From the sequence record NC_028780.1: a DNA stretch of 64,000 nucleotides, one strand, 5' to 3'. This stretch comes from Escherichia phage slur07. Both the position numbers and the translations under genes were made by a program. Below, piece by piece: positions 4,121 to 62,067 of the stretch (positions are counted from its first letter, which is position 1; the number at the start of each line of letters is the position of its first letter). The notes below the pieces were generated by a model. That model made no database searches and was not told the origin of the DNA. It worked only from the letters and a program-made list of their open reading frames with translations.

Positions 4121-4181
4121 GTTTACTTTCCGTTTGAGCTGTGGTACTATACAACTATCGGATAAAGAGGAGAACATCATG
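4121..4181 (+). repeat. PeSL-like early promoter/leader cassette (copy 1)
   Basis: GTTTAC 4121-4126, 18-nt spacer, TGgTACTAT 4142-4150, conserved leader ...ctatacaactatc..., SD, ATG 4179. Confidence 0.7.
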
Positions 4182-4367
4182 AAAATTGAAGCACTTAATC
4201 AAGAAGGAAATATCTACGTCATCATTAATGGTGATTTTTTCGTCGACATGGATGAAGTTACTAGTGAAGAACTTGTAGAATTTCTTAAGAAACGTTATAA
4301 TATGTGTGATGAAGTTGCAACTCACATGGCGTGTGCAATATTCTCTCTTTCATATGTGGTGGAATAA
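4179..4367 (+). CDS. hypothetical protein
   Basis: 62 aa from ATG 4179 downstream of cassette; track ORF start 4134 rejected because it translates the promoter leader. Confidence 0.5.
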
Positions 4368-5094: not shown

Positions 5095-5640
5095 ATGACG
5101 GTAGCGGCGAAACGATTAGTATTAGAAGTTAGTTCACTTTTTGGTGAATTGGCTATAGAAAAAGTAAATAATATGTATCGTTTGACACAAGAAGACGATA
5201 TGCTATATTTTACGCCTAGTGAAATCATTCATTTAACCCAAATTGAAAATCCTTATACTGATAAAATTGTAAGCATTAATGATGAGCATAAAATTCATTT
5301 TTATTCTTCATGCCCAGGATTTAATATTGAAAGCGAGTCAATATGCTTATCAGTTATCCATTGGGATAGTTTTATAGATAAGATTAAATATTTTTATTAT
5401 TCTAATGAAAGAAAACACAGTTTAAAATGGTTTAAAAATTGCAATGCTATTATTACTAACGCTTGCAATCAGAATGATGAAACTGTTTTAAACGTATCAA
5501 AATGTTATGAAGATGGAGATGTCTTAACTATTCGTCAAATTGATGATTTTCGAGCACATATTGTCACATTTACCAAAGACGAAGCTATTGCACTAAAGAC
5601 TTATCTTGATTCTGTTATTCCAACTATGATTTCAAAGTGA
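5095..5640 (+). CDS. hypothetical protein (paralog pair member A)
   Basis: 181 aa; C-terminal ...DEAIALKTYLDSVIPTMISK similar to next ORF. Confidence 0.5.
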   Translation: MTVAAKRLVLEVSSLFGELAIEKVNNMYRLTQEDDMLYFTPSEIIHLTQIENPYTDKIVSINDEHKIHFYSSCPGFNIESESICLSVIHWDSFIDKIKYFYYSNERKHSLKWFKNCNAIITNACNQNDETVLNVSKCYEDGDVLTIRQIDDFRAHIVTFTKDEAIALKTYLDSVIPTMISK

Positions 5641-5646
5641 GGAAAT

Positions 5647-6168
5647 ATGTTTATTTCAAGTGAAAGTGGTTTAATTCGTGTTGAATTTAAAAATGACATC
5701 TTCCTTAGTCAAGGAGATGATATTATTAAAATGAGTTATGACGAAATCAAGAAAATTTGTCATACTCTTGAAAGCCGTGGAAAAGTAAATGCTGTTATTG
5801 ACATCGGTGATTTATGGGTAACGCTTTATGAAGTATCCGAAGGATTTAACATTGAAGATGAAAATAACATTTTAGCTATTGATAAAAGAACTGATTTGTT
5901 TGATGTATTAAAAGCCTATGAACAGTCAAATGGTGGAAGAAAAGCTGCATTGATTTATCAAAAACCACATTCATGTGGAACTGCTTCAATCATTTCAAAT
6001 ATTGAAGGTGAAGTTGATACTTATATGTGTGTTTTAAAAGCTGGTGGTGACCGTCATCCGGATTTTATTTCTATTCGTCAAAACAATGGAGAAATTTCAT
6101 TATCAAAATCAGAAGCTGAAGCTATGATTAAGTATTTAACAACCATTACGCCTTCAATGAAAGGATAA
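5647..6168 (+). CDS. hypothetical protein (paralog pair member B)
   Basis: 173 aa; C-terminal ...SEAEAMIKYLTTITPSMKG similar to previous ORF; shared GFNIE(S/D)E core. Confidence 0.5.
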   Translation: MFISSESGLIRVEFKNDIFLSQGDDIIKMSYDEIKKICHTLESRGKVNAVIDIGDLWVTLYEVSEGFNIEDENNILAIDKRTDLFDVLKAYEQSNGGRKAALIYQKPHSCGTASIISNIEGEVDTYMCVLKAGGDRHPDFISIRQNNGEISLSKSEAEAMIKYLTTITPSMKG

Positions 6169-6170
6169 TT

Positions 6171-6632
6171 ATGATTATTAATGAAAACTCTTGGCACTAT
6201 AAATTATTCAAATTGTTTAACGATGAATGGCAACGACCTAAGACATTATGCGCATATTTTTGGTCTATTGCCATTCCTACATTTTTCGTTTCTATTTTTG
6301 GGTGTGCTATACTCGTAGGGTTAACAATTATTTGTGCAGAAAGCCTACAACGTTGGCTTATTTTCGGTAGTTTATGGACTCTTCTTCCATCGGCATTTAT
6401 ACTTGCACTTTTGGTTGTTTTACTTATTATCGGTTCATTTGTTATTCCTGCACATTTGCGTGAAAAATATAAAGATTATAAATGGAAAAAGGATTATGCT
6501 TTACACGTAGAAAATATTGATAGAGCGTATAAAGGTTTACCTCCTATTCAACCCAAGAAATCGATTATCGTCGAATTTTTAAAAGCTCGTAAAGCTAAAG
6601 TATGTCCTGTTATTGAATATAAGGCTGAATGA
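6171..6632 (+). CDS. integral membrane protein
   Basis: 153 aa; three hydrophobic segments (CAYFWSIAIPTFFVSIFGCAILVGLTIIC; WLIFGSLWTLLP; ILALLVVLLIIGSFVIPA). Confidence 0.5.
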   Translation: MIINENSWHYKLFKLFNDEWQRPKTLCAYFWSIAIPTFFVSIFGCAILVGLTIICAESLQRWLIFGSLWTLLPSAFILALLVVLLIIGSFVIPAHLREKYKDYKWKKDYALHVENIDRAYKGLPPIQPKKSIIVEFLKARKAKVCPVIEYKAE

Positions 6633-7641
6633 TGAAAACAGTAATGAAAAGCTATTTTGGTAGTCATCTTTATGGAACTTCTACCCCAGAATCTGATGTA
6701 GATTTTAAAGAAATTTTTGTTCCTCCTGCTCGCGATATTCTTATCGGAAATGTCAAAGAGCACATGAGTAAAAACACTAACAACACATCATCTAAAACAC
6801 TAAAGATGATATTGACCATGAACTATACAGTCTTAAATATTTCTTTAAATTAGCAGCAGATGGTGAAACTGTAGCATTGGATATGCTTCACACTCCACCT
6901 GAACTAGTGGTTAAATCTGATTTGCCTGATGTGTGGAAGTTTATTCAAGACAACCGTTCTCGTTTTTATACGACTAACATGAAATCCTATTTAGGATATG
7001 TCCGCAAGCAAGCTTCTAAATACGGCGTCAAGGGTTCTCGTTTGGCTGCATTACGTGATGTATTGAAAGTAGTTAATCAAATCCCTGAGCAATGGGTTGA
7101 TTACCAAGAAGACGGTTCCATTAAGCAGCGTCGTACTAAAGTTGAAGATATTAAGCATCGTCTTCCAGAAAACGAATTCTGTGAATGGGTGTTCCATAAT
7201 CATGAGAAAACAGGTCCACAAACGTTCTATACAGTGCTGGGTCGTAAATATCAGACAACGCTTTCTCTTATTGAGCTTAAGCAGTCACTGAACAAATTAG
7301 ATGCTGAATATGGTGAACGTGCTCGTAAGGCCGAAGCTAATGAAGGTATTGATTGGAAAGCACTAAGTCATGCTTGTCGTGGTGGACTTCAACTATTGGA
7401 AATTTACAAAACTGGCGACTTGATTTATCCACTCCAAGATGCTCCATTTATTCTCGACGTGAAGTTGGGTAAACATCCATTTAAAACAGTTCAAGAGTTT
7501 TTGGAAGATGTGGTCGATCAAGTAGAAGCAGCATCTACTGAAGCTTCTAAGAATGGTATGCCTAAAACAGTAGACATGAGTTTCTGGGATGACTTCCTTG
7601 AGAAGGTCTATCTTGAAAACCACCGAAGTTATTATAAATGA
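6629..7641 (+). pseudogene. pol-beta-type nucleotidyltransferase, split by a frameshift
   Basis: ORF 6629..6853 has GSHLYGTSTPESDVDF NTase motif; frame-shifted continuation open 6796..7641 (..DDIDHELYSLKYFFKLAADGETVALDMLHTP.., ..HACRGGLQLLEIYKTGDL..); junction at A4 run 6794-6797. Confidence 0.55.
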
Positions 7642-7643
7642 TA

Positions 7644-7667
7644 GGGAGCCTTCGGGCTCCCTTTTTT
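7644..7667 (+). terminator. rho-independent terminator
   Basis: gggagcc-ttcg-ggctccc hairpin followed by T6. Confidence 0.75.
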
Positions 7668-7691
7668 ATTTCAAAAATTTTTCACAAAACT

Positions 7692-7758
7692 GTTTACAAG
7701 CATAAAGCTTTATGGTACTATACAACTATCAACTGATACGGATTTGGAGAATAAAATG
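7692..7758 (+). repeat. PeSL-like early promoter/leader cassette (copy 2)
   Basis: GTTTAC 7692-7697, TGgTACTAT -10 7716-7721, leader ctatacaactatcaactgatacggatttggagaataaaATG, near-identical to 34913-34979. Confidence 0.75.
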
Positions 7759-8724
7759 AAAACTGTAACTATCAATAAGGGTATCTACTTCGGTAAAGAA
7801 ATCTCTGGAACTTTTGAGCTCTTAGGTGAATGGTTCCCAGATAATGCTCCGGTAGATGCGCAAGGAGATGGTAAAGTTTTTGTTGAAATTGACGGTAAAC
7901 GTCGCGGTGTTTGGGTTTACAAATCAGACATTTCATATGATGGTGTAAAAGTTGAAGAAGTTAAAGAATCGTATGAAGATATGAAAACCCGCATTAATAA
8001 AAGATTTAATGTTATGGGAATGATGACGAATGGTATTATTAATGGAAATATTCGTTCATTAATTATCTCTGGTGCGGCGGGTATTGGTAAAACGTATTCT
8101 TTAGATAAAGCTTTAAATAAAGCAAATGATATTGGATACATTGAATATAAAAGCATTAACGGTAAAATCTCCGGTATCGGTCTTTATGAACAGCTTTGGA
8201 ATAATCGTGAAGAGAATTCTGTCCTTTTGATTGATGATGTGGATGTTTTCTCTGATATGGACATTCTTAATCTTCTGAAAGCTGCTCTGGACACTGGAGA
8301 GACCCGTAAAGTCTGCTGGAGCACCGCATCTTCTTACTTAGAAGAAAAAGGCATTGAGCGTGAGTTTGAATTTAAAGGAACGATTGTTTTTATCACAAAC
8401 GTTGACATTGACCGCGAATTAGACCGTGGTACTAAACTTGCTCCACATTTACAAGCATTAGTGTCCCGCTCAGTTTATTTGGATTTGGGTGTTCACACTA
8501 ATGAAGAAATTATGGTCAGGGTTGAAGATGTTATTCTTTCAACTGACATGATGCAAAAGCGCGGTCTTTCTGATGAAGAAACTTATAAAGCATTATCATG
8601 GATGAAAGTCAATGTTAATCGTTTACGCAATGTTTCACTGCGTACTGCTCTTTATCTTGCTGACTTTATTATGACCGACAAAAATGGTTGGGAAGAAATT
8701 GCTGAGGTTACTCTTCTGAAATAA
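7756..8724 (+). CDS. P-loop NTPase (AAA-like ATPase)
   Basis: 322 aa from ATG 7756; Walker A GAAGIGKT, Walker B VLLIDDVD, sensor-like FITN. Confidence 0.65.
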   Translation: MKTVTINKGIYFGKEISGTFELLGEWFPDNAPVDAQGDGKVFVEIDGKRRGVWVYKSDISYDGVKVEEVKESYEDMKTRINKRFNVMGMMTNGIINGNIRSLIISGAAGIGKTYSLDKALNKANDIGYIEYKSINGKISGIGLYEQLWNNREENSVLLIDDVDVFSDMDILNLLKAALDTGETRKVCWSTASSYLEEKGIEREFEFKGTIVFITNVDIDRELDRGTKLAPHLQALVSRSVYLDLGVHTNEEIMVRVEDVILSTDMMQKRGLSDEETYKALSWMKVNVNRLRNVSLRTALYLADFIMTDKNGWEEIAEVTLLK

Positions 8725-9130: not shown

Positions 9131-9191
9131 GTTTACAAGACCGTTCCTCTGTGGTACTATACAACTATCAACTACGGAGGAACAGAAAATG
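9131..9191 (+). repeat. PeSL-like early promoter/leader cassette (copy 3)
   Basis: GTTTAC 9131-9136, TACTAT 9155-9160; arms GTTCCTC 9143-9149 / GAGGAAC 9177-9183 can pair, enclosing -10 and SD; ATG 9189. Confidence 0.75.
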
Positions 9192-9716
9192 AATGCTAAA
9201 GATATTTTCAACTTGGTAAACTACAATGATGGTAAATTTAAATCTGAAGCTCAAAGCAAGTTCTTTAATGACATCTCAATTGGAGGTGAAATCACTGTTG
9301 ATGGAGGACAAATTTACAAATCACGTTGGAATTGGATCGTTATTATTGATGAGATTGGTATTGTAGAAATTTACAAAAATACGAATAAAAATCGTACATT
9401 ACACTGGTCTCGTGATACTAACGAACAGTACAAAAAGGATAAAGCATCTAAATTATCTCGTGTAACTCAAGAAGATATTGAGTTCATCAAGAAAGATATT
9501 TTGATGTATGATAACTTAATTGCTGAAGAGCAAGCTGTTATTGATAAATTTGATGAGATTAAAGCTTCTCGTGAAATTCCTGATTTTATGAAAGAATCAG
9601 TAAATGAACGATACACTCTCATTTCAGAGCGTATTGAAACTTACAAAAAGCAAAGAGCTGAACGCCAGAATACTCTTCGGAAGTTTGAAGAACGGTTAAA
9701 GACGGTACTCGCATAA
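9189..9716 (+). CDS. hypothetical protein with C-terminal amphipathic tail
   Basis: 175 aa; C-terminal charged helix ...RQNTLRKFEERLKTVLA similar in character to the next four large ORFs. Confidence 0.5.
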   Translation: MNAKDIFNLVNYNDGKFKSEAQSKFFNDISIGGEITVDGGQIYKSRWNWIVIIDEIGIVEIYKNTNKNRTLHWSRDTNEQYKKDKASKLSRVTQEDIEFIKKDILMYDNLIAEEQAVIDKFDEIKASREIPDFMKESVNERYTLISERIETYKKQRAERQNTLRKFEERLKTVLA

Positions 9717-9771: not shown

Positions 9772-10179
9772 ATGAAACAGTTGATAATTAAAAGATTGAA
9801 TTTATTGATATGTTGTTTATGTATAGTAATTGCATATGGTTATTACGCAATTAATGATTATATGCATTATAAAGATTATGATGTTACTGTAGTTAATACC
9901 TTTACAGGAACTCAAGGAAAGGGGTCTAGTTTATCGTTTATTGCCGTATATGAACTAAATGACGGTTATAGATTTAGCGAATATATTTCACTGGAGATGT
10001 ATTCTTCAATAGAAAAAGGTGATAATATTACTGTAAGTTTACGTCCTTTCGACGTAAAACAGACATTGTTTGATAATATTGTTTGGTTCTTTGGAATGGT
10101 ATTAGTTCAATCTGTGTGTGGTGCTTATATAGTCTGTTCCATCTTATTCTGTATATTTAGTAAAATTGAAATTGAGTGA
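9772..10179 (+). CDS. membrane protein
   Basis: 135 aa; N-terminal TM (LNLLICCLCIVIAYGYYAI) and C-terminal TM (IVWFFGMVLVQSVCGAYIVCSILFCIF). Confidence 0.5.
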   Translation: MKQLIIKRLNLLICCLCIVIAYGYYAINDYMHYKDYDVTVVNTFTGTQGKGSSLSFIAVYELNDGYRFSEYISLEMYSSIEKGDNITVSLRPFDVKQTLFDNIVWFFGMVLVQSVCGAYIVCSILFCIFSKIEIE

Positions 10180-34830: not shown

Positions 34831-34912
34831 CATACAAGTAATATAAATCTATACTTATGAAAAACAGATGATTCTGGACCTTTAGAATTCCCTAAAAAAT
34901 TTTCACAAAACT

Positions 34913-34979
34913 GTTTACAAGACTGTTCCTCTGTGGTACTATACAACTATCAACTAATACGGATTTGGAGAATAAAATG
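34913..34979 (+). repeat. PeSL-like early promoter/leader cassette (copy 4)
   Basis: GTTTAC 34913-34918, TACTAT 34937-34942, leader ...ctatacaactatcaactaatacggatttggagaataaaATG (ATG 34977). Confidence 0.75.
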
Positions 34980-35213
34980 AAAATTGTTTATGGTTGCTTA
35001 GCAGTGTGTTTAGTTGCATTAGCCGCTGTTCCATTTATTGATATTGAAAATGATACTCAGAATGTGATTGAATCTAATACTGTTATTCACATGAATGGTA
35101 AAGTATCAACAAAAATTGATGATAATCTTCATATGAATACTAATGGAACGCTGGGTGTTCAATTAGGTAATACCTGTGTAAGCACTACTGGAGTAATTAC
35201 TACTTGTATTTGA
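34977..35213 (+). CDS. secreted/membrane hypothetical protein
   Basis: 78 aa; N-terminal hydrophobic segment (IVYGCLAVCLVALAAVPFI). Confidence 0.45.
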   Translation: MKIVYGCLAVCLVALAAVPFIDIENDTQNVIESNTVIHMNGKVSTKIDDNLHMNTNGTLGVQLGNTCVSTTGVITTCI

Positions 35214-53407: not shown

Positions 53408-53420
53408 AGTTTAAAATTTT

Positions 53421-53507
53421 TTCATAAAACTATATACATCAGTAGTTGATTATGGTACTATATCAATATCAACTACTGATACAGAAAACAACTTGGAGAA
53501 TAAAATG
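53421..53507 (+). repeat. PeSL-like promoter/leader cassette with 11-bp perfect stem (copy 5)
   Basis: CAGTAGTTGAT 53440-53450 / ATCAACTACTG 53468-53478 enclose TGGTACTAT (-10 53456-53461); -35 degenerate; leader ends ..cttggagaataaaATG 53505. Confidence 0.7.
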
Positions 53508-53774
53508 GAAAACTTAATTATCATCGAGCAATCTTTCAACGATTATGGTATGGCTTACGGTTATCGTGCGATAATGGAAGATTCTCGTGGATGTGTTATC
53601 GATATTGCTGAATGTAAAGATTTACTGCAGCTTTTGAAGATTGTTCGCAAAAATTGGGATTGTGAAAACATTAAAGCTCGTGTTGTAACGGAAGAAGAAA
53701 CTGTTTTTCATGATGTAAAATTTGCCAAAGGTGCTGCTACTCTTCTGAAACGCATCGCTCCACTGTTCAATTAA
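53505..53774 (+). CDS. hypothetical protein
   Basis: 89 aa from ATG 53505 downstream of cassette. Confidence 0.45.
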   Translation: MENLIIIEQSFNDYGMAYGYRAIMEDSRGCVIDIAECKDLLQLLKIVRKNWDCENIKARVVTEEETVFHDVKFAKGAATLLKRIAPLFN

Positions 53775-60814: not shown

Positions 60815-61372
60815 ATGCAGAAAACGAATCCGGGTTTACAGAGACTATTTCAGATTCCGACATTTACCCTATCGAACAGTGACTTGACTAGTGAAATGAA
60901 GGTCAAAATTGCTGATACAGCAAGATACTCTTTAAAACAAAACCCGAACCAGGATAAAGCAGAAGTTATCGAAAGATGCCGTATCGCTGTGTACGCAGAG
61001 TTTTTTGTGGCAGATTGGCTAAGCGGATATGTCAATAAAGGCCAAGAAGATGTCGATGATCCGTACACATATGCATGGGATGTTTTAGCACATCCAAAAT
61101 ACTGTGGGCTCCGTGTAGAAGTTAAGACACATCAAACTGACTCGCGTTGGATTTCGGTAACAACGGGATGCAGCGGAGAGTATCCATATGGTTCTGGAAT
61201 AAATCTAGGGCCCATTCTAAATCATCAAGTCGCGGACTGTATAATTATATTCAACACTAAAGAAATTCATCCAGGTGTCATCCAGTACACTCCGAAGTTC
61301 ATCGGTGACAGAGAAGACCTTCGTAAGGTTGTAAGAAAAAGCAACTACAACGGATGGTATCTTTCTATTTAA
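60815..61372 (+). CDS. denB: DenB-like endonuclease (endonuclease IV position)
   Basis: 185 aa (T4 DenB length) directly after rIIB. Confidence 0.5.
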   Translation: MQKTNPGLQRLFQIPTFTLSNSDLTSEMKVKIADTARYSLKQNPNQDKAEVIERCRIAVYAEFFVADWLSGYVNKGQEDVDDPYTYAWDVLAHPKYCGLRVEVKTHQTDSRWISVTTGCSGEYPYGSGINLGPILNHQVADCIIIFNTKEIHPGVIQYTPKFIGDREDLRKVVRKSNYNGWYLSI

Positions 61373-61389
61373 AAAAATTTCATAAAACA

Positions 61390-61449
61390 GTTTACATACC
61401 ACAAGGACCGTGGTACTATACAACTATCAGCTACGGAGGAGTAAAAATG
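61390..61449 (+). repeat. PeSL-like early promoter/leader cassette (copy 6)
   Basis: GTTTAC 61390-61395, TACTAT 61414-61419, leader ..ctatacaactatcagctacggaggagtaaaaATG (ATG 61447). Confidence 0.75.
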
Positions 61450-61710
61450 AAATTTAAATTTTATTACGCTAAACATAAAATTACCGGTGAATTTATTGCA
61501 TTTACGACTTCAACTACAGGTGAAGGAGATATTTTTACTGCAGTATTTTTATCAAAATGGGAATCAGATCAACCTTACTTATCATCACGTGAAGATCTCC
61601 AACGATTAGTTAATGGAGAATATAATGATTCATGGTCATATTTAGTCCATGATTGTGTTAAAAAGGCAATAAAACAAAAACACCTGGAAATCGTTGAGAT
61701 TGAACTATGA
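61447..61710 (+). CDS. hypothetical protein
   Basis: 87 aa from ATG 61447; track start 61354 translates the promoter. Confidence 0.45.
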   Translation: MKFKFYYAKHKITGEFIAFTTSTTGEGDIFTAVFLSKWESDQPYLSSREDLQRLVNGEYNDSWSYLVHDCVKKAIKQKHLEIVEIEL

Positions 61711-61895
61711 GTTCATTATGGTGGTGTTTTGTTTGGTTAATTAGTATTCCAGTAATTTGTTTAACATTTACTTTTGTGATGAGGTTATTATGAAAATTTT
61801 GAATTCTGTACTTATTGCGTGTGCATGGTTGGTTGCACAAGTTTCGGCAGTAGTGATTGGTATTCACATTTATTACGAATATTTTTAAAAAAGTT

Positions 61896-61956
61896 GTTTA
61901 CAAGACTGTTCTTCCGTGGTACTATTACCCTATCAACTACGGAGGAACAGAAAATG
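61896..61956 (+). repeat. PeSL-like early promoter/leader cassette (copy 7)
   Basis: GTTTAC 61896-61901, TACTAT 61920-61925; CTGTTCTTCC 61906-61915 pairs (9/10) with GGAGGAACAG 61941-61950 sequestering the SD; ATG 61954. Confidence 0.75.
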
Positions 61957-62067
61957 AAAAAGATTGTTAAAGCTATATGGAATGTAGTTATAATACTAAT
62001 AGTTTTGAGTATATTCCCAATCGTTTTAATGATTGATGTATTAAACGTTTACTTTGGATTTATGTGA
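61954..62067 (+). CDS. small membrane peptide
   Basis: 37 aa hydrophobic ORF (MKKIVKAIWNVVIILIVLSIFPIVLMI...) from cassette ATG. Confidence 0.4.
   Translation: MKKIVKAIWNVVIILIVLSIFPIVLMIDVLNVYFGFM

Follow-up and report, generated by a model that had tools for sequence, protein, structure and literature searches.

The gene at positions 6632-7641 of the window (the whole stretch of 64,000 nt from Escherichia phage slur07 that was analyzed, NC_028780.1) lies in two reading frames, and it raises the question of whether the phage has lost a nucleotidyltransferase, whether the deposited sequence has lost a base, or whether something functional is still made from the two halves. A preliminary description had attributed the split to a one-base frameshift in an A4 run, which proved right, with all coordinates confirmed. 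Phage slur07 came from cattle slurry and was isolated on E. coli MG1655 (PMC4698387), and the window is part of a Tequatrovirus genome, with 94-99% identity to many T4-like coliphages and an orientation opposite to the T4 map. The features described for 6171-8724 are on the + strand.

The split gene and its neighbours

The run at 6794-6797 is A4 (TCATCT-AAAA-CACTAAAG; in wider context ACATCATCT-AAAA-CACTAAAGATG), and aligning both halves to intact T-even homologs, as the preliminary description had proposed, revealed one A missing from an A5 run as the sole indel in the gene, which is annotated as nrdC.11 in the relatives. Four further 5-nt runs occur in the gene (A5 at 6770; T5 at 6714, 6963 and 7498). 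The span 6632-7641 measures 1010 nt, and the annotated intact CDS is 1011 nt in JK1, ESh18 and teqskov, in each of which it is one continuous ORF. The N-terminal ORF begins at ATG 6629 or 6632 and ends at TAG 6851-6853 (74 or 73 aa); the annotated start of the relatives is the second ATG (6632), located within a TGATG that is shared with the TGA of the upstream gene. This ORF carries the pol-beta nucleotidyltransferase signature that had been noted in it (GSHLYGTSTPESDVDF), and its 73-aa form consists of 55 native residues, with G10 S11 and D22 x D24, and an out-of-frame tail of 18 (TLKMILTMNYTVLNISLN). The C-terminal part, described earlier as about 280 aa in the -1 frame, indeed continues in that frame relative to the start: after a TAA at 6793-6795 the frame is open from 6796 to the stop at 7639-7641 (281 codons, residues 56-336 of the intact protein), and its first ATG, at 6883 (Met85), opens a 252-aa ORF. 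Adding one A gave a continuous protein of 336 aa (337 from ATG 6629, the length anticipated), the junction of which reads SSKNTKDDIDHELYSLKYFF, and residue for residue this repaired protein matches the intact one of phage vB_EcoM_OE5505 (100% identity). At the nucleotide level the gene differs from that of ESh18 by 3 SNPs besides the missing base.

Upstream of nrdC.11 is a gene for a predicted membrane protein of the RB32ORF096c type (6171-6632, 153 aa), the TGA stop of which overlaps the nrdC.11 start. Downstream, the terminator and the PeSL cassette reported previously were both recovered, as an intrinsic-terminator-like hairpin with a perfect 8-bp GC-rich stem (AGGGAGCC-TTCG-GGCTCCCT, 7643-7662) followed by a T-run (the whole element at 7643-7668), and as a repeated, PeSL-like early-promoter cassette of about 94 nt (7673-7766) with TTTACA-17-TACTAT at 7693-7721. 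This cassette has a second copy at 34894-34987 (88% identity) and weaker copies within the window at 4142, 9152, 53410, 61362 and 61869. The P-loop ATPase said to follow directly is the intact nrdC.10 homolog (7756-8724, 322 aa; AAA/STAND-like, with Walker-A GAAGIGKT and sub-threshold AAA/STAND Pfam matches), so that a terminator-like hairpin and a promoter-like sequence lie between nrdC.11 and the ATPase gene. No RNA ligase gene or RNA repair operon was present next to nrdC.11 within 6171-8724, where the neighbours are the membrane protein gene and the AAA-type ATPase gene.

Family assignment and consequence for the enzyme

Judged by its sequence, the gene at 6632-7641 is a homolog of T4 nrdC.11 and encodes a member of the RlaP family (PF10127) of pol-beta nucleotidyltransferases; the locus is an RlaP member by descent, and its products are not intact members. 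The repaired protein matched Pfam RlaP with 43.9 bits (cutoff 23) over residues 6-134, and the match therefore spans the frameshift junction; it also matched phrog_388 'nucleotidyltransferase' (E=4e-137) and was 98% identical to the T2/T4-type protein. PF10127 is precomputed on all full-length homologs. A HMMER search returned 3,322 representatives at E<=1e-3, and among the matches listed, those that cover the query from end to end are single-chain proteins, roughly 300-390 aa long. Previous work assigned T4 NrdC.11 to the RlaP family and described RlaP as an N-terminal nucleotidyltransferase domain plus a C-terminal helical domain with three strictly conserved catalytic Asp (2025 preprint, PMC12776372). 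In that study two Pseudomonas RlaP enzymes added one or two NMPs to the 3'-OH of damaged RNA, an activity demonstrated for the Pseudomonas enzymes only (PMC12776372). Like T4 NrdC.11 and other RlaP proteins, the repaired protein passes the Pfam gathering score and has the G-S...D-x-D...D motif, and its predicted N-terminal nucleotidyltransferase domain and predicted C-terminal helical domain may correspond to those of PfRlaP, RlaP proteins being characterized by a last helix that packs back on the N-domain; unlike them, the slur07 gene is broken after codon 55 and is without an adjacent RNA ligase gene.

In an alignment of 41 homologs (34-55% identity), G10, S11, G15, S21, D22, D24, N56 and D62 were invariant and D60 nearly so, and in the C-terminal domain Y131, R230, K243, H247, R250, P267 and K278 were also invariant. 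The AlphaFold2 model of the 98%-identical T2 protein (mean pLDDT 93.2) has an N-domain of beta/alpha type and, C-terminally, a long helical part; in this model the break at residue 55/56 falls in the loop between strands 44-48 and 61-67, and the latter strand carries the invariant third Asp, D62. Searching PDB sequences with the single protein and with the 41-sequence profile gave no match. Foldseek against PDB gave weak best matches (E 4e-3 to 3e-2, probability 0.96-1.0), which place the fold at superfamily level only: kanamycin nucleotidyltransferase/ANT(4') (1kny), 3c18 and Hailong HalB (9dbj), all pol-beta nucleotidyltransferases with a helical C-terminal domain (whole-chain TM-scores only 0.24-0.29, sequence identity 8-15%).

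As sequenced, the catalytic motif does not lie on one chain. The 73-aa product keeps G10 S11 and D22/D24 and is without N56, D60, D62 and the whole C-terminal helical domain; D22/D24 and D62 are in different frames; residues 56-84, and D62 with them, are in no ORF with a start codon; and the 252-aa fragment has no catalytic residue at all. Since the break precedes the strand with the invariant D62, neither fragment can be expected to be an active enzyme, and we infer from the conserved residues and the predicted structure that the enzyme has been knocked out.

Intact and broken alleles in relatives

The intact gene is the common form. Among phage records, 1,409 have an nrdC.11 homolog, 1,404 of which cover at least 80% of it at one place; it was uninterrupted in all 60 records sampled evenly down the ranking of the 1,409, and the full-length 336-aa cluster has 751 member sequences. 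The preliminary description had asked whether related phages share the two-ORF arrangement with independent starts, and we found that they do not: the orthologs are single ORFs, and the two-frame arrangement is not conserved. The phage collection was searched without the slur07 record itself (LN881732) and with slur02, 03, 04, 08, 11 and 13 included; none of its records is 100% identical to the window, a 55-nt query spanning the A4 site had no 100% match over its full length there, and all full-length matches listed span 56 bases, which is the A5 form. A pattern accepting A4 or A5 gave 0 A4 and 4 A5 in IMG/VR; no A4 was found in JGI metagenomes, in which 5 of 5 matches were A5, and neither form was found in GTDB genomes.

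A look-up of the exact 73-aa product located it, besides slur07, in two Logan assemblies and one E. coli WGS contig. Logan contig SRR32729830_171 (L009) and WGS contig ABYEWA010000010.1 of GCA_048639585.1 (L011) are identical over 4,048 nt and were therefore counted as one lineage, with 96.3% identity to the window in nrdC.11; Logan contig ERR4089631_11677 (L010) is 94.8% identical. Within the set compared, closer relatives have A5: ESh18 is 3 SNPs from the window, and L007 is 13 SNPs from L009. L010 has a second lesion, a net loss of 11 nt near window positions 7083-7128, after which its gene runs in frames 0 / -1 / 0; this is the look of a decaying pseudogene, not of a recoded gene. Around the A4 site all alleles share the same sequence for some 30-45 nt to the left and 80-110 nt to the right, and the three A4 lineages may reflect either recurrent mutation or short-patch recombination.

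Other lesions of nrdC.11 comprise a 10-nt deletion (P0003), a T-run deletion leading to ..LKYSLN* (P0145, 8 contigs), P0147, and the BYEP02 pair P0002/P0139; C-terminal fragments of 235 and 199 aa occur on complete-phage-sized contigs (P0129, P0134, P0135), and 81-aa fragments in pSs-1 and fPS-65. Previous studies reported that viable genome-reduced T4 mutants have lost the nrdC.11-mobD.3 fragment (PMC9825161). The gene is thus widely conserved, yet dispensable and occasionally lost, and the independent lesions scattered over T4-like phages suggest a host-dependent benefit.

Origin of the missing base

We consider that the slur07 allele represents a recent, true loss-of-function slippage mutation in a dispensable gene, to which we assign a probability of roughly 0.78, and of the three options offered in the preliminary description recent pseudogenisation is the best supported. 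The frame is disrupted relative to intact orthologs and the rest of the gene is near-identical to them; because the repaired protein shows no other change, the lesion would be very recent. One A was most likely lost from the A5 run by replication slippage. Translation from the normal start would then leave the native frame after Lys55 and stop 18 codons later, and the remaining 281 codons, without a proper start, could at best yield the 252-aa fragment from ATG 6883. The phage would tolerate the lesion because nrdC.11 is dispensable under laboratory conditions. Streisinger-type homopolymer frameshifts of T4 (the rII hot spots) are similar in the loss of one A from a run, the out-of-frame tail, the early stop and the non-essential gene; however, the slur07 allele is natural and isolate-level, not laboratory-selected, its run was just 5 long, and the recurrence in three lineages is not explained beyond a hot spot plus tolerance.

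The main rival is that the phage truly has A5 and an intact gene, and that one A was lost from the deposited consensus during sequencing or assembly. A pure sequencing error would leave the same pattern as a recent mutation, namely a single-base difference in a homopolymer and, after repair, a protein free of secondary decay that matches an intact homolog at 100% identity; moreover, the genome was published as a 'draft' (PMC4698387), and no GenBank phage record has a full-length exact match to the A4 site. Against this, the slur07 data are Illumina MiSeq (2x250) reads, assembled with SPAdes and then remapped for error correction (PMC4698387). The window itself gives a measure of the assembly: when 97 JK1 ORFs covering all of it were compared with it by tblastn, only one (nrdC.11) was split and the other 96 were not, despite the presence of 434 homopolymer runs of at least 5, so the assembly is not error-prone and a systematic defect was rejected. 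Illumina MiSeq data with read remapping are not prone to consensus errors of the A5-to-A4 kind, and a miscount of A5 is correspondingly unlikely. The remaining 1-nt indels relative to JK1, not each of which was mapped onto the annotation, are in stretches of divergence or next to start codons, gene ends and the T-runs of terminators; the one at 10169 touches only the last few codons of ORF 9772-10179, for which the window has the common 135-aa form. Further, the identical A4 allele exists in two sequence-divergent assemblies from independent runs, one of them with an extra lesion, and hence real phages with the A4 allele do exist. A homopolymer sequencing error, as put forward earlier, is therefore disfavoured and in our estimate improbable, at something like one chance in six.

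Expression of a full-length enzyme from the A4 allele, either by -1 ribosomal frameshifting or by A-adding transcriptional slippage, would be attractive in that a -1 shift of tRNA-Lys from AAA (6794-6796) to UAA restores the exact wild-type SSK-NTK, and in that the allele recurs in three lineages; the product would be about 39 kDa with the junction peptide SSKNTKDDIDHELYSLK. Nevertheless, the sequence context (U-CUA-AAA-C / UCU AAA ACA) is not an X XXY YYZ heptamer, and the codons UCU AAA, preceded by A, would re-pair to AUC and UAA, with the UAA pairing at 2 of 3 positions. The shift window is one codon wide because of the TAA at 6793-6795 in the target frame. No SD-like element was found upstream of the run in 6770-6793, and the 93 nt that follow are no more stably folded than shuffled sequences (MFE -12.2 kcal/mol, shuffle mean -14.1, z=+0.68). 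The resemblance to programmed -1 sites (dnaX A AAA AAG; the phage tail chaperone G/GT) ends with an A-run and a Lys codon at the frame change, whereas slippery heptamer, stimulatory structure, SD and conservation in relatives are all lacking. RNA polymerase slippage needs an A/T run of about 7-9 or more, and the run here, just 4 nt, is far below that length. Since a continuous A5 ORF is the norm in hundreds of relatives, no recoding signal had reason to evolve, and L010 gained its second frame-breaking lesion behind the A4. The sequence context, the z-score of the fold and the missing conservation accordingly led us to reject programmed frameshifting and transcriptional slippage, and the slippage option of the preliminary description is very hard to credit. 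Slightly harder still to credit is a functional split, in which the 73-aa and ~252-aa products combine into a working enzyme of two chains or the C-terminal helical domain serves some purpose by itself. In its favour, the slur07 record lists each ORF as a CDS, and ATG 6883 comes 30 nt after the upstream stop; but that ATG has no convincing SD before it, neither product contains N56, D60 and D62, described above as conserved, or strand 61-67, the whole-query matches listed among the more than 3,000 representatives are single chains, and in other lineages the gene is broken elsewhere, which is what lesions, unlike a conserved split, would produce.

The locus is thus an ordinary strain-specific knockout of a non-essential accessory gene. 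A more ambitious reading, which we regard as quite unlikely, is that the A5 run is a recurrent on/off hot spot under selection, where the RlaP enzyme is repeatedly switched off (three lineages), as it is elsewhere by other lesions. If so, the enzyme or its RNA products may be a liability on some hosts, e.g. by triggering a defence system, and the enzyme may be kept for RNA repair on others, in line with the more than 1,400 phage genomes that have it. The one mildly notable point is that the same run was struck in three divergent lineages and the gene broken otherwise elsewhere; host-dependent selection against the enzyme could be behind this, a suggestion that we hold to be equally unlikely. 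With a recent loss-of-function mutation as the preferred reading, slur07 is a ready-made natural nrdC.11-null T4-like phage, and its comparison with vB_EcoM_OE5505 (the protein of which equals the repaired product) or with ESh18 (3 SNPs) could be used to seek a phenotype of phage RlaP, e.g. on hosts with RNA-damaging defences.

The two-ORF form is already in the public record of slur07 (167,124-bp genome), where the halves are separate CDSs, CUL02416.1 / YP_009197358.1 (73 aa) and CUL02417.1 (252 aa), and two Tequatrovirus taxa are given for the 252-aa fragment. Exact matching of window products to slur07 entries succeeded for four ORFs; those of 181, 73 and 135 aa belong to slur07 entries alone, apart from the 73-aa fragment in the two Logan assemblies. 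RefSeq names the 73-aa fragment 'nucleotidyltransferase', a label that is misleading, and the locus deserves annotation as a frameshifted pseudogene. In gene order, the slur07 entries CUL02413, CUL02416, CUL02417 and CUL02421 correspond to ORF 5095-5637 (181 aa), the 73-aa ORF, the 252-aa ORF and ORF 9772-10176 (135 aa).

Broken alleles of nrdC.11

The RlaP-family nucleotidyltransferase gene nrdC.11 was found to carry different lesions in several other T4-like genomes (products P0002/P0139, which represent the broken gene of Escherichia phage BYEP02, and P0003, P0145, P0147, P0129, P0134/P0135, P0131 and P0138). Among these lesions, one deletion removes 10 nt and another falls in a T-run, whereas the junction '..PPELVLNISLN' resembles the outcome of a deletion between GT(C/G)TTAAAT microhomologies. 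Such differences across genomes suggest that nrdC.11 has been lost recurrently among T4-like phages. In the T4-like contig L010 (ERR4089631_11677), in which positions 289-1287 correspond to window 6632-7641, we observed the same A4 allele as in the window together with a second lesion, of net -11 nt, close to window 7083-7128. Because these two changes are combined, the frame order of nrdC.11 in L010 is 0, -1 and 0, with a total length change of -12 nt and with frame-0 stops present within the middle segment.

A 12-nt direct repeat, TAAAAACACTAA, occurs in two copies with a spacing of 24 nt in intact nrdC.11 alleles. In the window, the first copy (6769-6780) retains A5 at 6770-6774, and the second (6793-6803) contains the A-run shortened by one base.

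Gene neighbourhood and promoter cassettes

Three additional genes, namely a Mod-like ADP-ribosyltransferase, a 49-aa ORF and a DUF4031 gene, separate nrdC.11 from the P-loop ATPase gene nrdC.10 at 4125-5145 of L011, an A4-carrying phage contig (ABYEWA010000010.1) inside E. coli assembly GCA_048639585.1; therefore, the two genes are not obligately adjacent. We also found that an early-promoter cassette of about 94 nt (in which TTTACA-17-TACTAT precedes a conserved leader and SD) is repeated upstream of several genes in the window, at 7673-7766, 34894-34987, 53410-53523, 61362-61452, 61869-61960, 9152-9193 and 4142-4217, and that the best two copies share 88% identity.

Variable ORFs and annotation of relatives

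Two adjoining paralogous ORFs, at window 5095-5640 (181 aa) and 5647-6168 (173 aa), both match Pfam T4_y05I_N / T4_y05I_C according to gene tables precomputed for relatives; the former ORF varies strongly among relatives, and its slur07 version was found in slur07 only. At the 3' end of ORF 9772-10179 (window 10165-10179), an A-run differs by 1 nt from that of the related phage JK1, which alters just the final few codons and gives the common 135-aa form in the window versus a 134-aa form in JK1.

Annotation errors have spread among the records of relatives: in many of them nrdC.4-nrdC.11 genes carry the name 'thioredoxin', in one an nrdC.11 homolog is entered as 'putative HNH homing endonuclease', and we count among these errors the RefSeq name 'molybdopterin-guanine dinucleotide biosynthesis protein MobD' for the mobD.x-type ORF at window 5095-5640.
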